Positions 1,952-58,958 of a DNA stretch of 64,000 bases are shown piece by piece (positions within the stretch are counted from its first letter, which is position 1; each line of letters starts with the position of its first letter). The DNA lies in assembly GCF_009931435.1 (NCBI RefSeq), contig NZ_CP043414.1; one strand, 5' to 3'. The notes below the pieces were generated by a model, which was not told the origin of the DNA, did not search any database, and saw only the letters and a program-made list of their open reading frames with translations. The DNA is from Escherichia coli. GTDB lineage: Bacteria; Pseudomonadota; Gammaproteobacteria; Enterobacterales; Enterobacteriaceae. The translations under genes were made by a program, and so were the position numbers.

Positions 1952-3985
1952 TTATTTCACCTGATGGCCCGGTTTAGCACCGGCATCCGGGCTTAGCAGG
2001 AAAATATCTTTCCCGCCAGGACCGGCAGCCATCACCATGCCTTCAGAGATACCGAAGCGCATTTTACGTGGTGCCAGGTTAGCCACCATAATGGTGTGAC
2101 GACCAATAAGTGCCTGCGGATCCGGGTAAGCAGAACGAATGCCGGAGAAGACATTGCGTTTTTCACCGCCGAGATCCAGTGTCAGGCGCAGCAGTTTGTC
2201 AGAACCTTCAACAAACTCTGCGTTTTCAATCAGCGCCACGCGCAGGTCAACTTTAGCGAAGTCGTCAAAGGTGATGGTTTCCTGAATCGGATCATCTGCC
2301 AGCGGGCCAGTCACGGGGGCGGCAGTGGCTTTCACTTCTTCTTTAGACGCTTCCACCAGTGCTTCAACCTGCTTCATATCGATGCGGTTATACAGCGCCT
2401 TGAACGGATTCACTTTGTGGCCCAGCAGCGGTTGCTGGATGCCATCCCAGGTCAGTTCCGTATTGAGGAATGCTTCTGCACGCTCGGTCAGTTTTGGCAG
2501 TACCGGCTTCAGGTAAGTCATCAGTACGCGGAACAGGTTAATGCCCATAGAGCAAATCGCCTGCAGGTCAGCATCGCGACCTTCCTGCTTCGCCACCACC
2601 CACGGAGCCTGTTCATCGACATAGCGGTTAGCCAGGTCAGCCAGTGCCATGATTTCGCGCACTGCTTTACCAAATTCACGGCTTTCCCATGCTTCACCAA
2701 TCACTTCAGCGGCATCCGTGAAGGTTTTGTACAACTGCGGGTCAGCCAGTTCGCTTGCCAGCACGCCGTCAAAACGTTTGTTGATAAAGCCTGCGTTACG
2801 GGACGCCAGATTAACCACTTTGTTGACGATATCGGCATTCACACGCTGAACGAAATCTTCCAGGTTGAGATCGATATCATCAATGCGCGAAGAGAGTTTC
2901 GCAGTGTAGTAGTAACGCAGGCTGTCAGCGTCAAAATGATTCAGCCAGGTGCTGGCTTTAATAAAGGTGCCGCGAGACTTGGACATCTTCGCGCCGTTCA
3001 CCGTTACATAGCCGTGAACAAACAGGTTGGTCGGCTTGCGGAAGTTGCTACCTTCCAACATGGCAGGCCAGAACAGGCTGTGGAAGTAAACAATATCTTT
3101 ACCGATGAAGTGGTACAGCTCGGCGGTGGAGTCTTTCTTCCAGTATTCATCGAAGCTTACGCTGTCGCCGCGCTTGTCACACAGATTCTTGAAAGAACCC
3201 ATGTAGCCAATCGGTGCGTCCAGCCAGACGTAGAAATATTTGCCCGGCGCGTTCGGAATTTCAAAACCGAAGTACGGTGCATCGCGGGAGATATCCCATT
3301 GTTGCAGGCCAGATTCAAACCACTCCTGCATTTTGTTTGCCACCTGCTCCTGCAACGCACCGCTGCGGGTCCATGCCTGCAGCATTTCGCTGAAAGAGGG
3401 CAGATCAAAGAAGAAGTGTTCAGAATCACGCATTACCGGGGTAGCGCCAGAAACCACCGATTTCGGCTCGATCAGTTCAGTCGGGCTATATGTTGCGCCG
3501 CAGACTTCACAGTTATCGCCGTATTGATCCGGTGATTTACATTTCGGGCAGGTGCCTTTCACAAAACGGTCCGGCAGGAACATGCCTTTTTCCGGATCGT
3601 ACAGTTGAGAGATGGTGCGGTTTTTAATAAAACCGTTTTCCTTCAGGCGAGTATAGATAAGCTCAGACAACTGACGGTTCTCTTCACTGTGCGTCGAGTG
3701 ATAGTTGTCATAGCTGATGTTAAAGCCTGCGAAATCAGTCTGATGCTCCTGACTCATTTCGCCAATCATCTGCTCCGGAGTGATACCAAGCTGCTGAGCT
3801 TTCAGCATGATTGGTGTACCGTGGGCATCGTCGGCGCAGATGAAGTTGACCTCGTGGCCGCGCATTCGCTGGTAACGGACCCAGACATCAGCCTGGATGT
3901 GCTCCAGCATATGGCCGAGGTGGATTGAGCCGTTAGCGTACGGCAGTGCGCACGTCACCAGAATTTTCTTCGCGACTTGAGTCAT
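1952..3985 (-). CDS. metG: Methionine--tRNA ligase
   Basis: 680-aa ORF with HIGH-type motif ([11 protein letters not shown]) and KMSKS motif. Start set at the internal ATG giving [10 protein letters not shown] (677 aa) from memory of K-12 MetG; the ORF could begin 3 codons upstream (MPTMTQ). Confidence 0.95.
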
Positions 3986-4152
3986 AGTAGGCATTACTTC
4001 TTTGTAGTGAAAAGGGCTTAGATAGTACCAAATGGGGCATGGTTACGTAAGTCCTGTGCAAGCATCTTATGATGCATTATTAGGTAAGTACTTAGCTGTT
4101 AACTTCAGGTAAACTAATAGCGATAAGTTATCTTTATAAATAAGGAGTCGGG

Positions 4153-5262
4153 ATGAACGAACAATCCCAGGCCAAATCACCAGAAGCCCTGCGCGCAATG
4201 GTCGCCGGGACACTGGCCAATTTTCAGCACCCAACCCTCAAGCATAACCTCACCACGCTGAAAGCGTTGCACCATGTCGCCTGGATGGACGACACGCTGC
4301 ATGTGGAACTGGTTATGCCGTTCGTATGGCATAGCGCGTTCGAAGAGTTAAAAGAGCAATGTAGCGCCGAACTGCTGCGCATTACCGGGGCGAAAGCTAT
4401 CGACTGGAAACTGTCGCACAATATCGCCACCTTAAAACGCGTGAAGAATCAGCCGGGAATTAACGGCGTGAAGAACATCATTGCGGTCAGCTCCGGTAAA
4501 GGCGGCGTGGGTAAATCCTCCACGGCGGTAAATCTGGCGCTGGCACTGGCGGCGGAAGGGGCGAAAGTCGGCATTCTGGACGCCGATATCTACGGCCCAT
4601 CAATACCCACCATGCTGGGCGCAGAAAATCAGCGTCCAACTTCGCCGGACGGTACCCATATGGCACCGATTATGTCTCATGGACTGGCAACCAATTCAAT
4701 TGGTTATCTGGTCACTGACGACAATGCGATGGTGTGGCGTGGTCCGATGGCGAGCAAGGCGTTAATGCAGATGTTGCAGGAAACCTTGTGGCCGGATCTC
4801 GACTATCTGGTGCTTGATATGCCGCCAGGCACCGGTGACATTCAATTGACACTGGCACAAAACATTCCAGTAACTGGCGCGGTAGTGGTCACCACCCCGC
4901 AGGACATTGCGTTGATCGATGCGAAAAAAGGCATTGTGATGTTCGAGAAAGTCGAGGTTCCGGTGCTCGGTATTGTCGAGAACATGAGTGTGCATATTTG
5001 CAGTAACTGTGGTCACCATGAACCGATTTTCGGTACCGGTGGTGCAGAGAAACTGGCCGAGAAATACCACACGCAGTTGCTGGGGCAGATGCCGTTACAC
5101 ATTTCCTTACGTGAAGATCTCGATAAAGGCACGCCAACAGTTATCAGCCGTCCGGAGAGCGAATTTACTGCTATCTACCGCCAGCTGGCTGACCGCGTTG
5201 CAGCCCAGCTTTATTGGCAGGGAGAAGTCATTCCTGGCGAGATTTCCTTCCGCGCGGTCTGA
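4153..5262 (+). CDS. mrp: Fe-S cluster carrier ATPase Mrp/ApbC
   Basis: 369-aa ORF with deviant Walker A (SSGKGGVGKSS) and CxxC (CSNCGHH); divergent from metG as in K-12. Confidence 0.95.
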   Translation: MNEQSQAKSPEALRAMVAGTLANFQHPTLKHNLTTLKALHHVAWMDDTLHVELVMPFVWHSAFEELKEQCSAELLRITGAKAIDWKLSHNIATLKRVKNQPGINGVKNIIAVSSGKGGVGKSSTAVNLALALAAEGAKVGILDADIYGPSIPTMLGAENQRPTSPDGTHMAPIMSHGLATNSIGYLVTDDNAMVWRGPMASKALMQMLQETLWPDLDYLVLDMPPGTGDIQLTLAQNIPVTGAVVVTTPQDIALIDAKKGIVMFEKVEVPVLGIVENMSVHICSNCGHHEPIFGTGGAEKLAEKYHTQLLGQMPLHISLREDLDKGTPTVISRPESEFTAIYRQLADRVAAQLYWQGEVIPGEISFRAV

Positions 5263-6101: not shown

Positions 6102-6644
6102 ATGAAACGTTCAATTATTGCTGCCGCTGTCTTTTCTTCTTTTTTTATGAGCGCTGGGGTATTTGCCGCAGACGTTGATACCGGAACATTAACCATTAAA
6201 GGGAATATTGCAGAATCTCCGTGTAAATTCGAAGCGGGTGGCGATTCAGTAAGTATTAATATGCCAACTGTACCAACCACTGTCTTTGAAGGTAAAGCTA
6301 AATACTCGACCTATGATGATGCAGTCGGTGTAACCAGCAGCATGTTAAAAATTAGCTGTCCGAAAGAAGTTGCTGGTGTAAAACTCTCGTTGATTACCAA
6401 CGATAAAATAACCGGAAACGATAAGGCGATAGCCAGTAGCAACGATACCGTGGGGTACTATCTCTATTTAGGTGATAACAGCGATGTCCTGGATGTTTCT
6501 GCACCTTTTAACATTGAAAGTTATAAAACAGCGGAAGGTCAATATGCTATTCCGTTTAAAGCAAAATACCTGAAGCTGACAGATAATTCAGTGCAATCAG
6601 GTGATGTGTTATCTTCTCTGGTTATGCGTGTGGCGCAGGATTAA
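6102..6644 (+). CDS. yehD: Fimbrial major subunit-like protein
   Basis: 180-aa ORF with signal peptide and conserved fimbrial Cys pair; first gene of a subunit-chaperone-usher-adhesin array. Confidence 0.85.
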   Translation: MKRSIIAAAVFSSFFMSAGVFAADVDTGTLTIKGNIAESPCKFEAGGDSVSINMPTVPTTVFEGKAKYSTYDDAVGVTSSMLKISCPKEVAGVKLSLITNDKITGNDKAIASSNDTVGYYLYLGDNSDVLDVSAPFNIESYKTAEGQYAIPFKAKYLKLTDNSVQSGDVLSSLVMRVAQD

Positions 6645-6724
6645 TAAATAAAATTTCAAATTTCTCCAGGTAATAAACATGGCCGCTATCCCCATGGCGG
6701 CCTTTTAATTTAAGAGGCATTAAG

Positions 6725-7399
6725 ATGAAAGGATTATTAGCTTTACTCATTTCTTCTATGGTCCTTCCTGCACATGCCGGTATTGTCATCTACGGGACGC
6801 GTATTATTTACCCGGCAGAAAACAAAGAAGTGACGGTGCAGTTGATGAATCAGGGAAACCGTTCTTCGCTGCTGCAGGCGTGGATTGATGATGGCGATAC
6901 GTCGTTACCACCAGAAAAAATTCAGGTTCCTTTCATGTTAACGCCACCAGTGGCAAAAATAGGGGCAAATTCCGGGCAGCAAGTAAAAATCAAAATTATG
7001 TCGAATAAACTGCCCACTAATAAAGAGAGCATTTTTTATCTGAATGTTCTGGATATTCCACCAAATAGTCCAGAGCAAGAGGGCAAGAATGCACTGAAAT
7101 TTGCAATGCAAAACAGAATCAAATTGTTTTACCGGCCTGCGGGTATTGCACCGGTAAATAAAGCGACATTTAAAAAGTTACTGGTAAATCGCAGTGGCAA
7201 TGGATTGGTGATAAAAAATGACTCAGCAAATTGGGTAACGATTTCGGATGTCAAAGCTAATAATGTCAAAGTCAATTATGAAACTATTATGATTGCCCCC
7301 TTAGAAAGTCAGAGTATTAATGTCAAAAGTAATAATGCGAATAACTGGTATCTGACCATTATCGATGACCATGGCAACTATATTAGTGACAAAATTTAA
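6725..7399 (+). CDS. yehC: Periplasmic fimbrial chaperone (PapD-like)
   Basis: 224-aa ORF with signal peptide; chaperone-like N-terminal region (IVIYGTRIIYPAENKEVTVQLMNQG). Confidence 0.85.
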   Translation: MKGLLALLISSMVLPAHAGIVIYGTRIIYPAENKEVTVQLMNQGNRSSLLQAWIDDGDTSLPPEKIQVPFMLTPPVAKIGANSGQQVKIKIMSNKLPTNKESIFYLNVLDIPPNSPEQEGKNALKFAMQNRIKLFYRPAGIAPVNKATFKKLLVNRSGNGLVIKNDSANWVTISDVKANNVKVNYETIMIAPLESQSINVKSNNANNWYLTIIDDHGNYISDKI

Positions 7400-7414
7400 T
7401 TGCAGGAGCTGCCT

Positions 7415-9895
7415 ATGTTGAGAATGACCCCACTTGCATCAGCAATCGTAGCGTTATTGCTCGGCATTGAAGCTTATGCAGCTGAAGAAACCTTTGATAC
7501 CCATTTTATGATAGGTGGAATGAAAGACCAGCAGGTTGCAAATATTCGTCTTGATGATAATCAACCCTTGCCGGGGCAGTATGACATCGATATTTATGTC
7601 AATAAGCAATGGCGCGGGAAATATGAGATTATTGTTAAAGACAACCCGCAAGAAACATGTTTATCAAGGGAAATTATCAAGCGGTTAGGCATTAATACCG
7701 ATAACTTTGCCAGCGGTAAGCAATGTTTAACATTTGAGCAACTTGTTCACGGTGGGAGATATACCTGGGATATCGGAGTTTTTCGTCTCGATTTCAGTGT
7801 ACCGCAGGCGTGGGTGGAGGAACTGGAAAGTGGCTATGTTCCACCGGAAAACTGGGAGCGGGGTATTAATGCGTTTTATACCTCTTATTATGTGAGTCAG
7901 TATTACAGCGACTATAAAGCGTCGGGTAATAGCAAGAGTACATATGTACGTTTTAACAGCGGGTTAAATTTACTGGGGTGGCAACTGCATTCTGATGCCA
8001 GTTTCAGTAAAACAAATAGCAATCCAGGGGTGTGGAAAAGCAATACCCTGTATCTGGAACGTGGATTTGCCCAACTTCTCGGCACGCTTCGCGTGGGTGA
8101 TATGTACACATCAAGCGATATTTTCGATTCTGTTCGCTTCAGCGGTGTGCGGTTGTTTCGTGATATGCAGATGTTGCCTAACTCGAAACAAAATTTTACT
8201 CCACGGGTGCAGGGGATTGCTCAGAGTAACGCGCTGGTAACGATTGAACAGAACGGTTTTGTGGTTTATCAGAAAGAGGTTCCTCCTGGCCCGTTTGCGA
8301 TTACAGATTTGCAGTTGGCCGGTGGTGGAGCAGATCTTGATGTCAGCGTGAAAGAGGCGGACGGTTCGGTAACCACCTATCTGGTGCCTTATGCAGCAGT
8401 GCCGAATATGCTGCAACCCGGCGTGTCGAAATATGATTTTGCGGCAGGTCGTAGCCATATTGAAGGGGCGAGCAAACAAAGTGATTTTGTTCAGGCGGGT
8501 TATCAGTATGGTTTTAATAACTTATTGACGCTGTATGGCGGATCGATGGTCGCGAATAATTATTACGCGTTCACTTTGGGCACAGGCTGGAATACACGCA
8601 TTGGTGCCATTTCCGTCGATGCCACGAAGTCGCATAGTAAACAAGACAACGGCGATGTGTTTGACGGGCAAAGTTATCAAATTGCCTACAACAAATTTGT
8701 GAGCCAAACGTCGACGCGTTTTGGTCTGGCGGCCTGGCGTTATTCGTCGCGTGATTACCGGACATTTAACGATCACGTTTGGGCAAACAATAAAGATAAT
8801 TATCGCCGTGATGAAAACGATATCTATGACATTGCCGATTATTACCAGAACGATTTTGGCCGTAAAAATAGCTTTTCTGCCAATATGAGCCAGTCATTGC
8901 CAGAAGGCTGGGGTTCTGTGTCCTTAAGTACGTTATGGCGAGATTACTGGGGGCGTAGCGGCAGCAGTAAGGATTATCAGTTGAGTTATTCCAACAACCT
9001 GCGACGGATAAGCTATACCCTCGCGGCAAGCCAGGCTTATGACGAGAATCATCATGAAGAGAAACGTTTTAATATTTTTATATCGATTCCCTTTGATTGG
9101 GGTGATGACGTTACGACGCCTCGTCGGCAAATATATATGTCTAACTCAACGACGTTTGATGATCAGGGTTTTGCCTCAAATAATACGGGATTATCGGGAA
9201 CCGTTGGAAGCCGGGATCAATTTAACTATGGGGTCAACCTGAGTCATCAGCATCAGGGAAATGAAACGACAGCTGGAGCGAATTTAACCTGGAACGCGCC
9301 GGTGGCAACGGTGAATGGCAGTTATAGTCAGTCGAGTACTTATCGACAGGCTGGAGCCAGTCTTTCAGGGGGCATTGTCGCCTGGTCGGGTGGCGTTAAT
9401 CTGGCGAACCGTCTTTCCGAAACGTTTGCTGTGATGAATGCGCCAGGAATTAAAGATGCTTATGTCAATGGGCAAAAATATCGCACAACAAACCGTAATG
9501 GAGTGGTGGTATACGACGGAATGACACCTTATCGGGAAAATCACCTGATGCTGGATGTGTCGCAAAGCGATAGCGAAGCAGAATTACGTGGCAACCGGAA
9601 CATTGCCGTCCCTTTTCGCGGCGCGGTTGTACTGGTTAATTTTGATACCGATCAGCGCAAGCCCTGGTTTATAAAAGCGTTAAGAGCGGATGGGCAACCA
9701 TTAACGTTTGGTTATGAAGTCAATGATATCCACGGTCACAATATTGGTGTTGTCGGTCAGGGAAGCCAGTTATTTATCCGCACTAATGATGTACCGCCAT
9801 CGGTTAATGTGGCAATTGATAAACAACAAGGGCTCTCATGCACAATCACCTTCGGTAAAGAGATTGATGAAAATAGGAATTATATTTGCCAGTAA
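7415..9895 (+). CDS. yehB: Outer-membrane fimbrial usher
   Basis: About 826 aa, usher-sized. Track ORF begins at a TTG at 7400; ATG at 7415 is preceded by aggag and gives MLRMTPLASA with a signal peptide. Confidence 0.9.
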   Translation: MLRMTPLASAIVALLLGIEAYAAEETFDTHFMIGGMKDQQVANIRLDDNQPLPGQYDIDIYVNKQWRGKYEIIVKDNPQETCLSREIIKRLGINTDNFASGKQCLTFEQLVHGGRYTWDIGVFRLDFSVPQAWVEELESGYVPPENWERGINAFYTSYYVSQYYSDYKASGNSKSTYVRFNSGLNLLGWQLHSDASFSKTNSNPGVWKSNTLYLERGFAQLLGTLRVGDMYTSSDIFDSVRFSGVRLFRDMQMLPNSKQNFTPRVQGIAQSNALVTIEQNGFVVYQKEVPPGPFAITDLQLAGGGADLDVSVKEADGSVTTYLVPYAAVPNMLQPGVSKYDFAAGRSHIEGASKQSDFVQAGYQYGFNNLLTLYGGSMVANNYYAFTLGTGWNTRIGAISVDATKSHSKQDNGDVFDGQSYQIAYNKFVSQTSTRFGLAAWRYSSRDYRTFNDHVWANNKDNYRRDENDIYDIADYYQNDFGRKNSFSANMSQSLPEGWGSVSLSTLWRDYWGRSGSSKDYQLSYSNNLRRISYTLAASQAYDENHHEEKRFNIFISIPFDWGDDVTTPRRQIYMSNSTTFDDQGFASNNTGLSGTVGSRDQFNYGVNLSHQHQGNETTAGANLTWNAPVATVNGSYSQSSTYRQAGASLSGGIVAWSGGVNLANRLSETFAVMNAPGIKDAYVNGQKYRTTNRNGVVVYDGMTPYRENHLMLDVSQSDSEAELRGNRNIAVPFRGAVVLVNFDTDQRKPWFIKALRADGQPLTFGYEVNDIHGHNIGVVGQGSQLFIRTNDVPPSVNVAIDKQQGLSCTITFGKEIDENRNYICQ

Positions 9896-9910
9896 TAATC
9901 GGGTGGCTCT

Positions 9911-10945
9911 ATGAAAATTCGCATAATGTTATTTATATTAATTATGATGGTAATGCCTGTGAGTTATGCAGCATGTTATGGAGAGTTATCTGCTCAGCAT
10001 AATTTGGCTGTTCAGGGGGATTTTGCACTGACTCAAACACAAACGGCGACATATGAGCATAATTTCAACGATTCATCATGTGTGAGTACAAATACCATCA
10101 TTCCCATGAATTCATCGGATATTATTGTTGGGCTGTATAACGATACTATTAAATTAAATTTACATTTTGAATGGATCAATAAAAACAACATCACGTTGTC
10201 AAATAATCAGACCAGTTTCACCAGTGGTTATTCGATAACGGTAACACCTGCGGCTAGTAATGCAAAAGTAAATGTTTCTGCGGGGGGCAGCGGTTCAGTG
10301 ATGATTAATGGTGTTGCGACATTATCCAGTGCTTCATCATCGACACGCGGGAGTGCTGCAGTACAATTTTTACTGTGTTTATTCGGTGGCAAGTCATGGG
10401 ATGCATGTGTAAATAGCTACAGAAATGCATTGGCACAAAATGCAGGTGTCTATTCCTTTAATCTGACATTGTCATACAACCCGATAACCACAACCTGCAA
10501 ACCGGACGATTTATTAATTACTTTAGAGAGTATTCCCATTTCACAATTACCAGCTACAGGTAACAAAGCAACAATAAATAGTAACAAAGGGGATATTGTT
10601 CTGCGTTGTAAAAACTTATTAGGTCAACAAAATCAAACATCACGGAAAATGCAGGTGTATTTATCAAGTTCTGATTTGTTAACCAACAGCAACACAATAC
10701 TGAAAGGTGCGGAAGATAATGGCGTAGGATTTATTCTTGAAAGTAATGGTTCTCCAGTCACACTTTTAAATATCACTAACAGCAGTAAAGAATACACAAA
10801 TTTAAAAGAAATTGCGGCAAAGTCAAAACTTACAGATACAACGGTTTCAATTCCGGTAACTGCCAGTTACTACGTCTACGATACAAATAAAGTTAAATCT
10901 GGCGCTCTGGAGGCTACCGCCTTAATCAACGTGAAATATGATTAA
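9911..10945 (+). CDS. yehA: Fimbrial adhesin-like tip protein
   Basis: 344-aa ORF with signal peptide, last gene of the yehDCBA array. Confidence 0.8.
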   Translation: MKIRIMLFILIMMVMPVSYAACYGELSAQHNLAVQGDFALTQTQTATYEHNFNDSSCVSTNTIIPMNSSDIIVGLYNDTIKLNLHFEWINKNNITLSNNQTSFTSGYSITVTPAASNAKVNVSAGGSGSVMINGVATLSSASSSTRGSAAVQFLLCLFGGKSWDACVNSYRNALAQNAGVYSFNLTLSYNPITTTCKPDDLLITLESIPISQLPATGNKATINSNKGDIVLRCKNLLGQQNQTSRKMQVYLSSSDLLTNSNTILKGAEDNGVGFILESNGSPVTLLNITNSSKEYTNLKEIAAKSKLTDTTVSIPVTASYYVYDTNKVKSGALEATALINVKYD

Positions 10946-10999
10946 TAACAAGTAAGACGAGCAAGTGGCTAATAATAAAAAATAACAAGGTGTCTGCAT

Positions 11000-11029
11000 T
11001 TCCCCCTCATGATGAGGGGGCTTTTTTTA
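11000..11029 (+). terminator. Probable rho-independent terminator after yehA
   Basis: Hairpin tccccctcat/gatgaggggg followed by a run of seven T. Confidence 0.55.
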
Positions 11030-11365
11030 GCGATGATAAAAAATCTCACCGTCGTAGGCTTTAATGATTTTACCGTCGGCATCGTTGATCAACACGTATG
11101 CGCCACCCATATAGGTCCAGTGCGTTCCGGCATCAGGAGCGGGCAGGTTACGTAACTGCCACTGCTTAATGTTGTACTCATCGGTGCGGTACATCTCTGG
11201 GACGGTATCGCCTGGTTTGAAATGCTTAAAGTCAGCAATGAAACTGCTTAACTCATACTTAGAAATTCCCGAGGTATTGGTCGAACCCGCGGTGGCTGGT
11301 GCGGCCCAGGCGGCACTGGTAACCAGCAATAGCGCACCCAGCAACATCTTATTTTTAATGGTCAT
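11027..11365 (-). CDS. rcnB: Periplasmic Ni/Co homeostasis protein RcnB
   Basis: Track ORF is 172 aa; internal ATG giving MTIKNKMLLGALLLVTSAAWA (signal peptide, 112 aa) matches my memory of RcnB; downstream of rcnA on the same strand. Confidence 0.85.
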   Translation of the reverse strand: MTIKNKMLLGALLLVTSAAWAAPATAGSTNTSGISKYELSSFIADFKHFKPGDTVPEMYRTDEYNIKQWQLRNLPAPDAGTHWTYMGGAYVLINDADGKIIKAYDGEIFYHR

Positions 11366-11569
11366 ATACTCTCCACTTTGGGGATCTGTAATATCAGTCG
11401 CATATCTTTCCTGCCATACAATATAACTGACAAGCGATATTTTGTTAGTGATCCCATGATTTCGTAAAAAGTGTAAATGAAAGGATGCCCTAAAAGCATC
11501 CTTAGCGAGCAGAGAGCCAGCGGAAATAGCTGATTTAAGAATCATCCTGGGCTGAAGATAACATGCAGC

Positions 11570-12391
11570 CTATCGCATAATGCCCATAAAGCCATGCACG
11601 CCCATATACACCCCAACTAAGCCAATCAACAGACTGGAAAAATAGGGCGCACGTTTAGCGAGAGTGTTAAATCCGCTCCAGCGTTTTGCGACCTGCTGAA
11701 CGCTGATTGCTGCGCCAACGCCTACGGTGACCAGCGTTAACGCCAGGCCAATGCTGAAACTGACGACCAGTGTTGCGCCCAGTGTCAGGGCTTTCAACTG
11801 AATACAAATCAACAGCACGGTAATTGCTGCCGGGCAGGGGATCAGTCCACCTGTTAACCCAAACAATAAAATTTGCCAGTTGGTCACTTCTCTGCCATTG
11901 AAGCGTCGTTTGATGTCATTGGCATGGGCTCGTGCATGAGCATCCTGATACTCCCCATGTTCGTGATGGTGATGATGTCCATGGTCGTGGTGATCTTCGT
12001 GATCGTGATGATACTCATGATCATGCCCGTGCATATTCTCCAGCCAGTTGCGTTCGCCGCGCCAGGTACGCCAGAACATCCAGAACGCGGTGCCAATAAT
12101 GATCACCGCGGAAATCAACTGGAGCCACGGTTCTGCAGATTGAGCAGTAAAACGTTTGCTGATCACCATCCCGCCAAAGGCAATCAACCAGACCACCGCG
12201 GTATGCGAAAGGGTTGCTGCCAGTCCGAGCATCACCGCCTGTTTAATGGTGCCTTTGATGGCGATGATAAACGCCGCCATCATCGTTTTTGAGTGCCCTG
12301 GTTCCAGGCCATGAAGCGCACCAAGTAAGATGGCGCTGGGAATGAAGAACCAGGCGTTTCCTTGCTGAAGAAGAGTGGTAAATTCGGTCAT
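11570..12391 (-). CDS. rcnA: Nickel/cobalt efflux permease RcnA
   Basis: 273-aa membrane protein with a His-rich loop (HGHDHEYHHDHEDHHDHGHHHHHEHGE). Confidence 0.9.
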   Translation of the reverse strand: MTEFTTLLQQGNAWFFIPSAILLGALHGLEPGHSKTMMAAFIIAIKGTIKQAVMLGLAATLSHTAVVWLIAFGGMVISKRFTAQSAEPWLQLISAVIIIGTAFWMFWRTWRGERNWLENMHGHDHEYHHDHEDHHDHGHHHHHEHGEYQDAHARAHANDIKRRFNGREVTNWQILLFGLTGGLIPCPAAITVLLICIQLKALTLGATLVVSFSIGLALTLVTVGVGAAISVQQVAKRWSGFNTLAKRAPYFSSLLIGLVGVYMGVHGFMGIMR

Positions 12392-12874: not shown

Positions 12875-12990
12875 ACCAAACGACTCGGGGTGCCCTTCTG
12901 CGTGAAGGCTGAGAAATACCCGTATCACCTGATCTGGATAATGCCAGCGTAGGGAAGTCACAGACCACCAGGTCATTGCTTCTTCACGTT
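12875..12990 (+). promoter_or_regulatory. TPP riboswitch (thi box) in the thiM leader
   Basis: ggggtgcccttctgcgtgaaggctgagaaatacccgtatcacctgatctggataatgccagcgtagggaa immediately upstream of thiM; conserved THI-element core (ctgaga, cctgatctggataatgccagcg). Boundaries approximate. Confidence 0.9.
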
Positions 12991-29217: not shown

Positions 29218-29304
29218 AAAAAATAAGCCCGTGTAAGGGAGATTACACAGGCTAAGGAGGTGGTTCCTGGTACAGCTAGCATTTTATGGGTTATGTTTTT
29301 CAGC
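29218..29304 (-). ncRNA. cyaR: CyaR (RyeE) Hfq-dependent small RNA
   Basis: Minus-strand sequence GCUGAAAAACAUAACCCAUAAAAUGCUAGCUGUACCAGGAACCACCUCCUUAGCCUGUGUAAUCUCCCUUACACGGGCUUAUUUUUU matches the CyaR sequence as I recall it, including the terminator hairpin and U-tail. Confidence 0.85.
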
Positions 29305-29388
29305 GAAACGGATGATAACCTTAATAAATGCAGCTGTATGTGATCGGTTTCTAAGAATTTTCCATCCGGGAAAAATAATCGAAATTAA

Positions 29389-30750
29389 TCACTTACCGTG
29401 GGGGTTACGCGTGGTTTCCCCGGAGAAATGACGCATCAGCAGCGCGTAATTTAGCTCAAGATCCTGCGGCACCGGGAGCCACACAGTATAACCATCGCCT
29501 GGTGCTACCGGCATAGCTTCGCCTTTGGCGTTTTCCATGTGCTCAAGGGTAAAGTTAATGTTGCCTTGCGGCGTCATCAGCTCAAGGCTGTCGCCAACGG
29601 AGAATTTATTTTTCACCGCTACCGCCGCGAGGTCCCCCTTGCGCTCACCGGTAAACTCACCAACAAACTGCTGGCGGTCAGAAACCGAATAACCGTATTC
29701 GTAGTTCTGATAATCGTCGTGAGTATGACGACGCAGGAAACCTTCGGTATAGCCACGATGCGCCAGACCTTCCAGAGTTTCCAGCAGGCTGGTATCGAAC
29801 GGTTTGCCCGCAGCGGCATCATCGATAGCTTTACGATAAACCTGTGCGGTGCGTGCGCAATAGTAGAAAGATTTAGTACGGCCTTCGATCTTCAGCGAAT
29901 GCACGCCCATTTTGGTCAGGCGTTCTACATGGGCGATGGCGCGCAGATCTTTCGAGTTCATGATGTAAGTGCCGTGCTTATCTTCAAACGCGGTCATATA
30001 CTCGCCCGGACGCTGGGCCTCTTCGATCATAAACACTTTGTCGGTTGGTGCGCCGATACCCAGCGTCGGCTCAACATTTTGCACCGGAATCGGCTCGTAC
30101 TTGTGTACGATGTTGCCAACATCATCTTCTTTCCCTTCCTGGACGTTGTACTCCCAGCGGCAGGCGTTGGTGCAGGTGCCCTGGTTCGGGTCGCGCTTGT
30201 TGATATAGCCAGAGAGCAGGCAGCGACCGGAGTAGGCCATGCACAGCGCGCCGTGAACGAAGATCTCGATCTCCATATCCGGCACCTGATTGCGGATCTC
30301 TTCAATCTCTTCCAGCGACAGCTCGCGAGAGAGGATCACGCGGGTCAGGCCCATTTGCTGCCAGAATTTCACCGTCGCCCAGTTCACGGCGTTAGCCTGC
30401 ACCGAAAGGTGGATCGGCATTTCAGGGAAGTGCTCACGCACCAGCATAATCAGCCCTGGATCGGACATAATCAGCGCATCCGGCCCCATTTCCACCACCG
30501 GTTTCAGGTCACGGATAAAGGTTTTCAGCTTGGCGTTGTGCGGTGCAATGTTGACCACGACATAAAACTTTTTCCCCAGCGCGTGGGCTTCATTGATGCC
30601 GAGCTGAAGATTTTCGTGGTTGAATTCGTTGTTGCGCACACGCAGGGAATAACGCGGCTGGCCCGCATAAACAGCATCTGCGCCATAAGCGAAAGCGTAA
30701 CGCATATTTTTCAGCGTTCCCGCCGGGGAAAGGAGTTCCGGTTTAAACAT
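29389..30750 (-). CDS. yegQ: Peptidase U32-family protein
   Basis: 453-aa ORF MFKPELLSPAGTLKNMRYAFAYGADAVYAG, U32 collagenase-like family. Confidence 0.9.
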   Translation of the reverse strand: MFKPELLSPAGTLKNMRYAFAYGADAVYAGQPRYSLRVRNNEFNHENLQLGINEAHALGKKFYVVVNIAPHNAKLKTFIRDLKPVVEMGPDALIMSDPGLIMLVREHFPEMPIHLSVQANAVNWATVKFWQQMGLTRVILSRELSLEEIEEIRNQVPDMEIEIFVHGALCMAYSGRCLLSGYINKRDPNQGTCTNACRWEYNVQEGKEDDVGNIVHKYEPIPVQNVEPTLGIGAPTDKVFMIEEAQRPGEYMTAFEDKHGTYIMNSKDLRAIAHVERLTKMGVHSLKIEGRTKSFYYCARTAQVYRKAIDDAAAGKPFDTSLLETLEGLAHRGYTEGFLRRHTHDDYQNYEYGYSVSDRQQFVGEFTGERKGDLAAVAVKNKFSVGDSLELMTPQGNINFTLEHMENAKGEAMPVAPGDGYTVWLPVPQDLELNYALLMRHFSGETTRNPHGK

Positions 30751-30852
30751 AATTCTCTCGTTCTGATGACAGGTCAGATCCGCTTCACCTGATGAAGCGG
30801 TTAGGGGAGTGCCCCCACTTTAAGGGCGGGCATTGTAGCGCAATCGGCGGGT

Positions 30853-31149
30853 TTAGCTCCAGTGTAAATGTCTGGTGGCGTCCTGGTTTTGGTTAAGGAT
30901 ACGAATGACGATAATTTCCCCTGGTGATTGCAGGAAATAAATGACGTGGCGTTCAAAAGAAAGAACAAAAATACCTTCGCCTAATTCAGGTCTGGGCGTA
31001 CCTATATTATTGTTACTCAGAATCTGGAGAACGTCTGAAAGATGTTCCACATATCTGTCGGCTTGTGGTTCGCCGAAATGGTGATAGCTGTAATACCAGA
31101 TGCCTTCTAAATCCTCATTGGCTTTTGGCATGAGTTTAATAATACGCAC
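30853..31149 (-). CDS. ParE/RelE-superfamily type II toxin
   Basis: 98-aa ORF MRIIKLMPKANEDLEGIWYYSYHHFGEPQADRYVEHLSDVLQILSNN, ParE-like; starts 1 nt after the stop of the upstream antitoxin ORF. Confidence 0.8.
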   Translation of the reverse strand: MRIIKLMPKANEDLEGIWYYSYHHFGEPQADRYVEHLSDVLQILSNNNIGTPRPELGEGIFVLSFERHVIYFLQSPGEIIVIRILNQNQDATRHLHWS

Positions 31150-31150
31150 A

Positions 31151-31402
31151 TTATTTCCTTATCCCTGCTTTCACCTTCCGTAAGAACGCGTCCTTTTCCC
31201 ACGGCTGAGCTTCACCACTACTCAACCCTTCTGCGAGCATGTCACGTAACGCTTGCAGGCGAGACTCTGCTTGCTTTTCTCGAAGTAATCGCAGTGACTC
31301 ACGGATCACTTCGCTTTGGGTGCGATAGTCGCCGGATTCAATTAAGGACTCGATAAATTCACGCAACTCATCGCCGAGATCAACCGTCATCGTTCTGGCC
31401 AT
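31151..31402 (-). CDS. ParD-family type II antitoxin (RHH)
   Basis: MARTMTVDLGDELREFIESLIESGDYRTQSEVIRESLRLLREKQ resembles ParD antitoxins; start chosen at ATG 31402 (83 aa) over the track start at 31447. Confidence 0.8.
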   Translation of the reverse strand: MARTMTVDLGDELREFIESLIESGDYRTQSEVIRESLRLLREKQAESRLQALRDMLAEGLSSGEAQPWEKDAFLRKVKAGIRK

Positions 31403-31617
31403 TTTACGCCCGCCTGTAAGTAAAAATCTTACATCAGTGTATGTCATAAACCGGATAGCGTCACGAAAGTATTAGAAGATATTTTGGCACATGAACATGT
31501 TCAGGAGGATAAGTATGGGATGGTAAACAAAGAAAGCACAACGAGTGCTCGTCAGTGCCCACTATTTTAATGGCGGCGGTTACTCTTAATTATTAATAAC
31601 TAAGCGTTATTTGGATA

Positions 31618-31652
31618 TAAAGCCGGACGCCAACAACCCACGCCCGGCATCG
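31618..31652 (-). terminator. Probable rho-independent terminator of yegP
   Basis: Hairpin gccgggcgtgg...cgtccggc followed by UUUAUAU on the minus-strand transcript, just downstream of the yegP stop. Confidence 0.5.
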
Positions 31653-31655
31653 TAA

Positions 31656-31988
31656 TTACGTATTGTCTTTCACCGTCTGGCTTGTGCCATTGGCTTTAAC
31701 GGAGGCAATTCCGGTTTCACGAGATTGCGCGGTGGCGTACATCTGGCTGGAGCCGATAATTTGATGATTAGCGGCTTTCAGATTGAAATAGAATTTGCCG
31801 TTACTTGCCGTTTTTTTCTCATAGCGTTCTTCTTGCGGGCTGTTGCTACGCACCGACGCGATGCCCTTTTCCGCAGAGGCTTTTGAGGTATACAGCTCGC
31901 TGGTGAGGATAGTCTCACCATTGCCCGCTTTTAGCACAAACCGGAACTGATTATCACTGCTCTTACTGAGTTCAAACCAACCAGCCAT
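31656..31988 (-). CDS. yegP: UPF0339/DUF1508 tandem-repeat protein YegP
   Basis: Internal ATG gives MAGWFELSKSSDNQFRFVLKAGNGETILTSELYTSKASAEKGIASV (110 aa) with two DUF1508-like repeats. Confidence 0.85.
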   Translation of the reverse strand: MAGWFELSKSSDNQFRFVLKAGNGETILTSELYTSKASAEKGIASVRSNSPQEERYEKKTASNGKFYFNLKAANHQIIGSSQMYATAQSRETGIASVKANGTSQTVKDNT

Positions 31989-43389: not shown

Positions 43390-43531
43390 GAAACGGGAAA
43401 GCCCCTCCCGAGGAAGGGGCCTTAAATAAGGAAAGGGTCATGATGAAGCTACTCATCATCGTGGTGCTCTTAGTGATTAGCTACCCAGCATACTAAGACT
43501 ACCAGGGCGGGGGAAACCCCGCTCTACCCTC
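43390..43531 (-). ncRNA. sibB: Sib antisense RNA covering ibsB
   Basis: Minus-strand promoter: -35 TTGACA (revcomp of about 43562-43567), 17-nt spacer, -10 TACTTT (revcomp of about 43539-43544); terminator-like hairpin gcccctcc...ggaagggg near 43401-43420. Ends approximate. Confidence 0.6.
43440..43496 (+). CDS. ibsB: Type I toxin Ibs (18 aa, hydrophobic)
   Basis: ATGATGAAGCTACTC... encodes MMKLLIIVVLLVISYPAY, preceded by aaggaaaggg. A/B assignment by position (copy nearer mdtA), from memory. Confidence 0.8.
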   Translation: MMKLLIIVVLLVISYPAY

Positions 43532-43717
43532 ACTCCTGAAAGTATGCCTTCACGATAAGATTGTCAATCCGCAGGATTTGCCGTCTGCGATCCTGCCAGC
43601 AAATATTCTTTGCGAGTCGTTACGCAATAATCACAGAGGAAACTATTTTATTCACGCGTTAGCGATAGACTGCATTCAGGGCGAAAGGAGGTAAGCCGAT
43701 GATTTCAGCGGGACGCT

Positions 43718-43866
43718 GAAACGGGAAAGCCTCTCCCGGAGAAGAGGGCTTTTAATAAGGAAAGGGTTATGATGAAGCACGTCATCATACTGGTGATACT
43801 CTTAGTGATTAGCTTCCAGGCTTACTAAGAACACCAGGGGGAGGGGGAAACCTCTCCCTAACCCTC
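43718..43866 (-). ncRNA. sibA: Sib antisense RNA covering ibsA
   Basis: Minus-strand promoter: -35 TTGACA (revcomp of about 43897-43902), 17-nt spacer, -10 TAATTT (revcomp of about 43874-43879); hairpin gcctctcccggagaagagggc near 43730-43750. Ends approximate. Confidence 0.6.
43769..43828 (+). CDS. ibsA: Type I toxin Ibs (19 aa, hydrophobic)
   Basis: ATGATGAAGCACGTC... encodes MMKHVIILVILLVISFQAY; second copy of the repeat unit, nearer yegL. Confidence 0.8.
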   Translation: MMKHVIILVILLVISFQAY

Positions 43867-44048
43867 ACTCCTGAAATTATGTCACTCCGCACTTAGTGTC
43901 AATCGACGGCTCTCCGTTCTTGCGAGGCGAATAGCAAAATTTTCTGCGCCGCCGGGCCTAATTCTGAAAGTTTCTTCGTTTGCTCTTATTTCATTATTGC
44001 AGTCGGTATGATACCGGACCTCGATAATTCTCTAAGAAAGGATTTCTT

Positions 44049-58478: not shown

Positions 58479-58946
58479 AGTAAGTACAAAACCTATTCGT
58501 TGTATGACAAATGTCACAATTCGATCATGGATAAATCGGGGCAAAAATGCAATGTTGCAGCACTATTTATCTCATATTATTTGAGGGTAATAACCTCACA
58601 TTATCCCTGAATTAAAAGTGGTAATAATAAAACATTATTTAAGAAATATCGCATGTGGAGGCGCAATATTAAATATTGTCAACCTAAAGAAACTCCTAAA
58701 AACCATATTGAATGACACTTAATATAATTCTTAAAAATAGCCAATTGCCGAATTGTTACCTTGCCTGCTATTCCGTTAGCTGTAACACTTCCTCCTGCAT
58801 TATTGGAGAGCCAATATTCAATTACCATAATGTCACCTTATATTCGGAAGTTAATTTCCGCAATAACCCTTTCTCATCAACGATTGTATGCAGAGAGGGT
58901 TTGAAAAATTAAGCTAAATCAGTGTATTGGTAGCTAAAAAGCCAGG

Positions 58947-58958
58947 GGCGGTAGCGTG
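58947..58958 (+). promoter_or_regulatory. ops (operon polarity suppressor) element in the wza 5' leader
   Basis: ggcggtagcgtg seen directly, about 180 nt upstream of the wza ATG; matches the RfaH-recruiting ops consensus GGCGGTAGnnTG. Confidence 0.7.

Follow-up and report, generated by a model that had tools for sequence, protein, structure and literature searches.

A ParD/ParE type II toxin-antitoxin operon directly upstream of trhP (yegQ) in Escherichia coli, most likely an older chromosomal state that K-12 has lost

Introduction

The spacer between yegP and yegQ (trhP) in the 64-kb stretch of E. coli DNA analyzed here (hereafter the window) holds two small genes that are missing from K-12, which raises the question of what the pair encodes, what its toxin would act upon, and which of the two chromosomes preserves the older state. 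A first-pass annotation made from the letters of the window took the pair for a ParD/ParE-like toxin-antitoxin module that had been inserted as strain-specific accessory DNA. We find the pair itself to be ordinary and known in kind, as it is already annotated: RefSeq names it ParD/ParE in the complete E. coli genomes that carry it, while a literature search for this specific pair returned nothing specific to it. Taking the evidence below together, we are confident that the locus is a canonical autoregulated type II ParD/ParE operon that has long resided on the chromosome, directly upstream of trhP.

Results

Operon Layout

The intergenic region from the yegQ start to the yegP stop corresponds exactly to positions 30751–31655, and the list of open reading frames together with the sequence gives two intact minus-strand genes within it, parD and then parE (Table 1). 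The parD stop codon (TAA, 31153–31151) is followed by a single base (31150) and then by the GTG start of parE at 31149, so that the order (antitoxin first, toxin second), strand and one-nucleotide spacing first proposed for the pair are all confirmed by the coordinates, as is the reading of the ParD N-terminus as MARTMTVDLGDELREF. This is the layout of a type II operon, with small, adjacent and co-oriented genes, the antitoxin upstream and tight spacing between the two. The same junction is found in E. whittamii and Pseudocitrobacter, the latter also carrying the GGAAATA(A/G)NGTG motif at the parD-parE boundary. RefSeq gives parD as a 98-residue protein starting from an ATG at 31447; the true start is likely the ATG at 31402, which yields 83 residues, since the ATG at 31447 does not share the parD frame in E. 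whittamii or Pseudocitrobacter and lies inside the conserved spacer of a promoter-like element. Downstream of the toxin, a terminator scan of 30751–30852 found no minus-strand terminator between parE and trhP, and the TACAAT hexamer and leader hairpin that precede trhP are kept in K-12, E. whittamii and Pseudocitrobacter.

Table 1. Positions of the features discussed in the text, numbered along the window.
Feature	Position	Strand	Description
parE-stop to trhP (yegQ)-start spacer	30751..30852	-	102 nt; TACAAT 30837-30832, leader hairpin 30780-30800
Variable segment	30842..31621	-	780 nt here vs. 21 nt (GCTTTACCAGAGCCCCCCACA) in K-12; from alignment
parE toxin	30853..31149	-	98 aa; GTG start 1 nt past parD stop
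P64S toxin variant	30960..30960	-	single-base difference from common E. coli allele; sole difference in 1,801 bp vs. strain Ec-042
parD antitoxin	31151..31402	-	83 aa, MARTMTV...IRK, stop included in coordinates; N-terminal ribbon-helix-helix DNA-binding domain and C-terminal toxin-binding region
parE Shine-Dalgarno	31156..31160	-	AAGGA, inside parD end; read from sequence
Candidate ParD operator	31415..31433	.	palindrome TGTAAG-N7-CTTACA between -10-like hexamer and parD Shine-Dalgarno
Putative parDE promoter	31436..31464	-	GTGACG (31464-31459), 17 nt, TACACT (31441-31436); inferred from sequence
yegP terminator hairpin	31622..31648	-	GCCGGGCG...CGTCCGGC then TTTATAT; terminator scan; yegP-side edge of variable segment

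Family Assignment of Antitoxin and Toxin

The upstream product had been called ParD-like, and full-length family models place it there above their cut-offs. It scores 88.4 bits against TIGR02606 (curated cut-off 46.2; residues 4–74 on model positions 1–69 of 70) and matches PF03693 with an E-value of 4.7e-19 over model positions 1–76 of 81. Residues 6–42 give a secondary match to RHH_1, with further matches to ribbon-helix-helix (RHH) domains of the NikR/CopG type, and the RHH region aligns without gaps to the solved RHH domain of PrpA (7YCV, E 8e-18). Over the whole protein, ParD is 61% identical to the PrpA chain of 7YCS (E 1.9e-27).

The downstream product, first described as ParE/RelE-like, belongs with ParE by PF05016, phmmer and Foldseek alike. 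It matches PF05016 at E 3.9e-13 over model positions 1–88 of 89, and no NCBIfam model matched it at E≤0.01. It is important to consider here that PF05016 by itself cannot tell ParE from RelE (PMC11980606), and because the family also holds RelE ribonucleases, the structural ranking of ParE over RelE matters for the assignment. At E<0.01, ParE toxins are the sole phmmer matches in the PDB, namely PrpT (3.4e-11), M. tuberculosis ParE1 (1.3e-8), Caulobacter ParE1 (1.3e-7) and V. cholerae ParE2 (1e-5), with no RelE, YoeB or HigB among the matches at E<1. The AlphaFold (AF2) model of the toxin (pLDDT 91) places helices at residues 8–25 and 27–46 followed by three strands, which reproduces the long N-terminal alpha-hairpin typical of ParE. 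All of the first 23 Foldseek ranks for this model are ParE toxins (TM 0.66–0.88 over these ranks, the matches to solved ParE toxins lying at TM 0.75–0.88 with rmsd 1.1–2.9), with RelE, YafQ and YoeB lower in the list at TM 0.5–0.66, the first RelE-type match standing at rank 24 (TM ~0.6).

These results bear directly on the idea that the toxin acts as a ribosome-dependent mRNA endonuclease of the RelE kind and not as a gyrase poison. PF05016 covers both kinds, the RefSeq protein name is “RelE/ParE family,” and a histidine that is highly conserved among ParE toxins (His88 of V. cholerae ParE2) is absent from the clade to which this toxin belongs. Set against this, the phmmer matches, the Foldseek ranking and the modeled hairpin all speak for ParE, and the toxin is paired with a PF03693 ParD, as Caulobacter-type ParE usually is, all of which leaves an endonuclease most improbable in our estimation. 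The assignment of the pair to the ParD(RHH)/ParE type II family is solid as judged from sequence and predicted structure.

Comparison with Characterized Systems

By sequence and by structural model, the closest solved relative is PrpA/PrpT of the Pseudoalteromonas rubra plasmid pMBL6842 (PDB 7YCS), which likewise comprises a PF03693 ParD-type RHH antitoxin of 83–86 residues followed by a 98-residue ParE-type toxin (PMC7848731, PMC9731233). The DNA-reading strand RTMTVD is identical in PrpA and the ParD described here, and the toxins are 31% identical with a TM of 0.88 and an rmsd of 1.1. Toxicity has been shown for PrpT, and PrpA acts as a repressor of the promoter from which it is expressed, its sites lying within the -35 and -10 regions (PMC7848731). 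PrpTA differs in being plasmid-borne, with PrpA also binding origin iterons and controlling copy number, whereas the pair here is chromosomal and single-copy with no replicon nearby.

The Caulobacter ParDE1 (3KXE), M. tuberculosis ParDE1 (8C24) and V. cholerae ParDE2 (7R5A) systems share the fold and the architecture with the RHH antitoxin first (toxin E 1e-5 to 1e-8, antitoxin E 3e-12 to 9e-11, TM 0.83–0.84), but are only 26–32% identical to the pair. Much closer are the ParD/ParE pairs of Enterobacteriaceae plasmids (conjugative plasmids of Salmonella, Klebsiella and Citrobacter, and Yersinia relatives), which fall in the same clade with toxins 60–68% identical. These plasmid copies adjoin Rep and integrase genes and would be expected to serve plasmid maintenance, in contrast to the pair here, which is fixed between chromosomal housekeeping genes. 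The founding ParDE system of RK2 is similarly type II, autoregulated and antitoxin-first with a ParE-type toxin, but its ParD belongs to PF09386 and has no sequence relationship with the PF03693 ParD of the present pair (PMC7848731).

Likely Target of the Toxin

Free ParE most likely poisons DNA gyrase, by analogy with its relatives. Gyrase inhibition has been demonstrated for the Caulobacter, M. tuberculosis and V. cholerae toxins, from which it is extended by homology to the toxin here, and ParE of the Yersinia plasmid pYV leads to an SOS response and DNA compaction (PMC10203498). For PrpT, the two papers describing it (PMC7848731, PMC9731233) contain no gyrase data.

The residues associated with gyrase poisoning are changed in this toxin, with Phe25 and Asn86 aligning to Trp25 and His88 of V. 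cholerae ParE2 (Trp is also found in the M. tuberculosis and Caulobacter toxins). Trp25 is poorly conserved across ParE toxins and His88 is highly conserved (V. cholerae ParE2 preprint). PrpT also has Phe at the Trp25 position but retains the conserved histidine in a VLHQ motif that reads ILNQ here, and all members of the clade at 60–100% identity, the plasmid toxins included, carry Asn or Ser in place of His88. As read from the alignment, Phe25 and Asn86 would only weaken the case for gyrase. The combination of Asn or Ser for His88 with Phe for Trp25 in this enterobacterial clade means that potency or target could differ; that this clade acts on a target other than gyrase is a reading of low probability.

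Candidate Operator and Promoter

We aligned the regions upstream of parD from five diverged loci (the window, E. whittamii, Pseudocitrobacter, Pluralibacter and a plasmid-like contig), in which no block other than the palindrome TGTAAG-N7-CTTACA is invariant. The 64-kb window contains this palindrome a single time where 0.05 occurrences are expected, and its center, ATTT(T/G)TAC, resembles the PrpA site (G/A)TTTG(T/A)AAT(A/G) (PMC9731233). This footprint suggests that the palindrome is likely the ParD operator. A second palindrome, TGAACATGTTCA (31492–31503), was considered as an operator and rejected, as neither Pseudocitrobacter nor the other diverged loci have it.

No minus-strand promoter upstream of parD reached the scanner threshold of 9; the GTGACG-17-TACACT element scores 8 of 12. 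Both of its hexamers and their 17-nt spacing are kept in E. whittamii and Pseudocitrobacter, and it is from this conservation that we infer it to be the parDE promoter.

Distribution and Origin of the Locus

The pair occupies the yegP-yegQ site in 1,843 of 5,426 complete E. coli genomes (34%), the variable segment being found in 1,845 of them, with one copy in each, on the chromosome only and never on a plasmid, and falls into two allele classes (99% or more, and about 97% identity). The remaining yegP-trhP spacers hold either a 5-kb cassette of four genes (5.5%) or the short allele of the K-12 type. Alignment with XL1-Blue, used as the K-12 representative, bears out that K-12 lacks the pair, the 780 nt of the variable segment (30842–31621; first put at roughly 700 bp) being replaced there by 21 nt. 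As had been described, the segment begins directly past the yegP terminator hairpin, up to which (position 31622) the sequence is shared with K-12. The K-12 site is a replacement of 21 nt, not a clean empty site, and in this allele a -35-like TTTACC lies 17 nt from the conserved TACAAT.

Beyond E. coli, E. whittamii carries the pair at this site, and so does Pseudocitrobacter, which belongs to another genus and in which the pair is 74–79% identical at the nucleotide level as compared to 75–86% for baeS, baeR and trhP. Escherichia sp. E1V33 has an internally deleted ParDE remnant at the site, and the B2-type allele with the 5-kb cassette keeps ParDE sequence at its two ends, namely 112 nt from upstream of the operon and the final codons of the toxin gene. 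Relatives elsewhere are found on the conjugative plasmids named above and on a Rep3/integrase contig, the nearest of these plasmid relatives being only ~65% identical, while a tblastn search against phages gave one partial match, to an unannotated record of 2 kb, from which nothing can be concluded about a phage origin. A peptide-pattern scan of the genome collection returned close relatives only and missed Pseudocitrobacter, such that its low yield does not mean absence elsewhere.

The alternative to be weighed is that a mobile toxin-antitoxin cassette recently entered a hitherto empty yegP-yegQ spacer by horizontal transfer, as a strain-specific event, with K-12 as the ancestral state. The absence of the segment from K-12 and the existence of plasmid- and integrase-associated relatives would fit such an event, as would the composition of the segment (GC 43.8% vs. 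50.8% for the window), which implies a foreign origin of the pair at some point in the past. The pair has also diverged less from its E. whittamii counterpart than the flanks have, with a synonymous divergence of 0.16–0.23 as compared to 0.38–1.05, so that some homologous recombination within Escherichia is likely, not pure vertical descent. Finally, the test for a deletion scar in K-12 is weak: local alignment of the 21-nt spacer with the toxin 3' end against shuffles gives p ~0.03 for the E1V33 variant, and the likeness is not significant with the window, E. whittamii or the cassette allele, which makes the scar suggestive only. A recent insertion nevertheless has to contend with a single site shared by 1,843 of 5,426 genomes in two allele classes, with the same junctions in two further taxa at a divergence that in Pseudocitrobacter resembles that of the flanks, with the remnants in two other alleles, and with plasmid relatives of at most ~65% identity. 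The signs of mobility are likewise missing, as no target-site duplication or direct or inverted terminal repeats were found at the segment flanks beyond short chance matches, and no integrase or transposase lies beside the pair among the window ORFs. We regard a recent insertion as quite unlikely.

Loss in K-12 is the better reading because the same site is occupied in E. whittamii and Pseudocitrobacter, remnants persist in two other alleles, and a mobility signature is lacking. Across the E. coli, E. whittamii, Escherichia sp. E1V33 and Pseudocitrobacter loci compared, ParDE is most likely the oldest recognizable state of the spacer, from which the K-12 state would have arisen by deletion. 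Of the original description as strain-specific accessory DNA inserted here, “accessory” holds given the 34% occupancy, “strain-specific” does not, and “inserted” probably does not.

Selection and Possible Decay

Relative to E. whittamii, dN/dS is 0.023 for parD and 0.13 for parE, values that indicate purifying selection on both genes. The strain examined carries one coding change in the toxin, P64S, and no 100% match to its allele exists among the 5,426 complete E. coli genomes. Position 64 is Pro in the other 12 rows of the alignment, Ser in M. tuberculosis ParE1 and Ala in Caulobacter ParE1.

It could be argued from this private change at a near-invariant proline that the pair is decaying or attenuated, its toxin no longer harmful and the locus neutral for this strain. 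Two thirds of E. coli do without the locus, which shows it to be dispensable, the Pluralibacter copy is a pair of pseudogenes (ATA start, in-frame stop), and some chromosomal ParE toxins, such as P. aeruginosa ParE1, are described as barely toxic. Both reading frames are intact, however, the operator and coupling signals are conserved, the low dN/dS over a species-level divergence reflects selection on both proteins, and active ParE1 toxins have Ser or Ala at the very position that is changed. Attenuation in this strain therefore seems unlikely.

Discussion

The features of the locus can be assembled into a mechanism in which ParD would neutralize ParE and repress its own operon, as its characterized relatives do. 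A ParD dimer, through its N-terminal ribbon-helix-helix domain, would bind the TGTAAG-N7-CTTACA palindrome just past the -10 element and repress parDE, while its C-terminal region would wrap and neutralize ParE, probably in a PrpTA-like ParE:ParD2:ParE heterotetramer given the 61% identity to PrpA. As the sequence shows, translation of parE is coupled to that of parD by the single-nucleotide gap and the Shine-Dalgarno sequence within parD. Upon degradation of ParD, or when it is no longer made, the ParE set free would most likely poison DNA gyrase and induce the SOS response, in the manner of its nearest characterized relatives.

A more far-reaching proposal is that the position of ParDE upstream of trhP, with no intervening terminator and across at least two genera, reflects a functional link, in which derepression of a stress-responsive parDE promoter reads through into trhP, so that hydroxylation of tRNA U34 would be tied to activation of the toxin-antitoxin pair. 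A deletion of the K-12 type, by bringing TTTACC within 17 nt of TACAAT, would then have rewired trhP expression. We consider this very unlikely. A role in abortive infection, which the first-pass annotation had raised among others, is unsupported, since neither ParD nor ParE matched a PADLOC-DB family at E≤0.01; PADLOC also gave no match for the alternative 5-kb cassette.

In one respect the finding matters little beyond bookkeeping, since the module is a standard one and already bears the ParD/ParE name in RefSeq for over 1,800 complete E. coli genomes. The absence from K-12 is nonetheless misleading, for a segment that looks accessory most likely represents the older state, retained across genera at a single place on the chromosome, with the reference strain showing a derived loss. 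The yegP-trhP spacer emerges as a recombination hotspot with at least three alternative contents, which gives context for pangenome and toxin-antitoxin surveys. The phylogenetic footprint, in turn, provides a precise candidate operator for the enterobacterial ParDE clade, including its plasmid copies, as the plasmid-like contig shares the TGTAAG-N7-CTTACA candidate with the pair described here.

Identity and layout of the pair

The two genes between yegP and trhP (yegQ) make up a genuine ParD/ParE module that is well supported; its naming was already known from RefSeq, which labels the products "ParD family antitoxin" and "RelE/ParE family toxin". We found no study of the yegP-trhP pair specifically in the literature. 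Surveys of E. coli toxin-antitoxin systems describe >20 ParE_toxin groups whose patterns are lineage-specific (PMC10790755), and ParDE-family loci have been statistically linked to the emergence of quinolone resistance (PMC10575684).

The ORF and junction sequences agree with the anatomy described in the first-pass annotation (antitoxin then toxin on the minus strand, with a 1-nt gap), and the parE ribosome-binding site, AAGGA, lies within the 3' end of parD. RefSeq gives parD as 98 aa from an ATG at 31447, which falls within the spacer of the conserved promoter-like element and is out of frame in E. whittamii and Pseudocitrobacter through 1-nt indels. Since the extension is not conserved, the 98-aa form is disfavoured, and these alignments make MARTMTV (ATG 31402) the most likely start, for a product of 83 aa.

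Features of the yegP-trhP region and comparison loci (minus-strand ORF order from 32027 to 29389: yegP, antitoxin-like ORF, toxin-like ORF, yegQ/trhP)
Feature	Position	Remark
yegP	31656-31988	stop at 31656
yegP of E. whittamii (L003)	3160-3492	
Second terminator-like hairpin	31550-31534	T-rich run after
Perfect 12-nt palindrome	31492-31503	TGAACATGTTCA
Promoter-like element	31464-31436	GTGACG-17 nt-TACACT
Candidate operator	31415-31433	TGTAAG-N7-CTTACA
parD	31402-31151	stop TAA 31153-31151
parE	31149-30853	GTG start at 31149
Variable-segment junction	30832-30860	TACAAT upstream of trhP
trhP 5' leader hairpin	30780-30800	8 bp, CCGCTTCA/TGAAGCGG
yegQ/trhP		start at 30750
CyaR sRNA	29221-29306	adjoins trhP
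Two Sib antitoxin RNAs	43425-43902	type I Ibs/Sib modules
thiM TPP riboswitch	12876-12972	
JUMPstart element	58920-58958	
Cassette, E. coli 401656 (L007)	6600-11700	5.1 kb; site of window 30842-31621
Pluralibacter gergoviae pair (L004)	3748-4290	

The antitoxin scores 88.4 bits against NCBIfam TIGR02606 "ParD family antitoxin" (cut-off 46.2 bits) and also matches Pfam PF03693 (4.7e-19), with an RHH match nested within it; the toxin covers the whole PF05016 model (3.9e-13). Because PF05016 holds gyrase-poisoning ParE and RNase RelE proteins together (PMC11980606), the toxin's nearest neighbours were checked. Among solved structures at E<0.01, the sequence search returned ParE toxins exclusively: PrpT (7YCS, 3.4e-11), M. 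tuberculosis ParE1 (1.3e-8), Caulobacter ParE1 (1.3e-7), V. cholerae ParE2 (1e-5) and Mesorhizobium ParE (2e-3). The AlphaFold2 model of the toxin (pLDDT 91.1, pTM 0.81) predicts a short strand, a helix hairpin (long helices 8-25 and 27-46) and three strands; in its Foldseek ranking against the PDB, ranks 1-23 are all ParE chains (top group TM 0.75-0.88, rmsd 1.1-2.9), with RelE, YafQ and YoeB below them at TM about 0.5-0.66. PDB 7YCS is PrpT/PrpA of a Pseudoalteromonas rubra megaplasmid, and PrpA is 61% identical to the window antitoxin (E 1.9e-27), the RTMTVD strand being identical. The proposed ParD/ParE identity is thus upheld by the family models, the solved-structure matches and Foldseek, and the assignment is sound.

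Regulation, selection and toxin residues

Purifying selection acts on both genes, with dN/dS against E. whittamii of 0.023 for parD and 0.13 for parE. The upstream region was aligned for five loci (the window, E. whittamii, Pseudocitrobacter, Pluralibacter and a plasmid-like contig that carries Rep3 and an integrase and has a 65% identical toxin), and TGTAAG-N7-CTTACA alone is unchanged, the rest having diverged. This palindrome sits 12-18 nt 5' of the start codon and occurs once in the 64 kb; the promoter-like element directly upstream of it is kept in three chromosomal taxa. Standard type II autoregulation places an RHH repressor on a palindrome at the transcription start. The centre of the window palindrome resembles the motif (G/A)TTTG(T/A)AAT(A/G) recognised by PrpA (PMC9731233), which represses its own promoter (PMC7848731). 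The second terminator-like hairpin and TGAACATGTTCA, which lie past the yegP terminator and ahead of the parDE promoter, are both kept in E. whittamii and both absent from Pseudocitrobacter.

From the operator and autoregulation pattern and the likeness to PrpA, we propose a model in which ParD dimers would repress parDE at the candidate operator, the C-terminal part of ParD would neutralise ParE, and free ParE would presumably poison gyrase. Homologues of ParE from M. tuberculosis, Caulobacter and Vibrio inhibit gyrase. PrpT is toxic (PMC7848731), and ParE of Yersinia pYV brings about SOS induction and DNA compaction (PMC10203498). At the positions of Trp25 and the highly conserved His88 of V. 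cholerae ParE2, however, the window toxin has Phe and Asn, and the His88 equivalent is Asn or Ser throughout the clade of 60-100% identity; these residues count against a simple transfer of function. As PADLOC models matched neither ParD nor ParE, the suggested role in abortive infection or defence is without support.

A single base in 1,801 bp separates the window from the common allele (strain Ec-042, WP_001220181.1): a minus-strand C-to-T change at 30960 giving toxin P64S. The 12 other clade members in the alignment all have Pro at position 64, no complete E. coli genome matches the window allele at 100%, and the difference could be a sequencing error. The substitution need not inactivate the toxin, since the equivalent residue is Ser in M. 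tuberculosis ParE1 and Ala in Caulobacter ParE1.

The trhP side and neighbouring RNAs

K-12 shares the trhP leader hairpin; the Pseudocitrobacter version has different stem bases with pairing largely kept (CCGCG..CAC/GTG..CGCGG). No T-run follows the hairpin, which may serve to regulate trhP. The conserved TACAAT lies right at the variable-segment junction, and the K-12 replacement places TTTACC 17 nt upstream of it, a better -35 than the ParDE allele offers at that spacing, so that trhP promoter strength may differ between alleles. The RNA elements tabulated are Rfam matches at gathering score. An ogrK/P2 remnant beside cyaR in K-12 is absent from the window strain, where yegR lies directly next.

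Distribution and history of the site

K-12 (XL1-Blue) has yegP and trhP at the site and nothing else, as the first-pass annotation had stated. Its alignment with the window is common up to 31622, directly after the yegP terminator hairpin, and resumes at 30841 (GCGCTACAATG...), with 780 nt between the shared flanks in the window and 21 nt, GCTTTACCAGAGCCCCCCACA, in K-12; the difference is a replacement and not a clean empty site. Direct or inverted repeats flanking the 780-nt segment were not found beyond chance, nor was a mobility gene at the ParDE locus. The low GC of the segment (43.8%) shows an ultimately foreign origin of the pair.

A strain-specific insertion does not fit the wider distribution, 1,843 E. 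coli genomes, E. whittamii and Pseudocitrobacter sharing the site. Among 5,426 complete E. coli genomes, 1,845 carry the segment (near full length in 1,843), each as a single chromosomal copy at yegP-trhP. Carriers, including O104:H4 2011C-3493 and O111 and O121 strains, fall into two allele classes, with 1,514 genomes at >=99% identity and 330 at about 97%. A third allele of the site, in 298 of the 5,426 genomes, Nissle 1917 and UTI89 among them, holds a cassette of four co-oriented genes on the opposite strand (PcfJ-domain, DUF1266, DUF4034 and a hypothetical protein), with no PADLOC match. Both of its edges come from ParDE: next to yegP it keeps 112 nt of the upstream region, and next to trhP about 17 nt from the end of the toxin ORF. 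The cassette has therefore taken the place of a ParDE core. IS1 insertions occur in the region in several genomes: E. coli 29A20CPO013 has IS1 within the yegP terminator hairpin and an intact pair, and in strain 1283 it replaces yegP and the pair is fragmented.

Outside E. coli, the direction of change was read from E. whittamii, Escherichia sp. E1V33 and Pseudocitrobacter. E. whittamii has the order baeS-baeR-yegP-parD-parE-trhP-yegS, with the toxin 95% and the antitoxin 99% identical to the window; synonymous divergence is 0.16-0.23 for the pair vs. 0.38-1.05 for the flanks, a difference suggesting that recombination has exchanged alleles to some extent. The 345-nt spacer of E1V33, about 115 nt of upstream region fused to the 3' half of parE, is an internal-deletion remnant of ParDE. 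The likeness of the K-12 21-mer to the 3' end of the toxin ORF is only weak (p about 0.03 against the E1V33 variant). Contigs whose BaeR, TrhP and YegS exactly match Pseudocitrobacter (P. corydidari) proteins carry a homologue (79% toxin identity) between baeR and trhP, without yegP. Its divergence is flank-like (nucleotide identity to the window: parE 74%, parD 79%; baeS 75%, baeR 82%, trhP 86%), and its downstream junction is the same as in the window.

Variation or recombination in the region may extend to yegP: the synonymous divergence of this gene from E. whittamii, about 1.05, exceeds the values for baeR (0.53) and trhP (0.38) two- to threefold, and yegP is absent between baeR and parD in Pseudocitrobacter. 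In Pluralibacter gergoviae ATCC 33028 a homologous pair lies at another chromosomal site, between alr and tyrB, and is decayed (antitoxin start codon ATA, in-frame stop in the toxin), with its operator palindrome intact.

The first-pass annotation identified the pair correctly and had its history backwards. The E. coli distribution, the cassette edges, E. whittamii, the E1V33 remnant and Pseudocitrobacter, taken together, point to ParDE as the oldest recognisable state of the yegP-trhP site and to the short K-12 allele as having most likely arisen by deletion.
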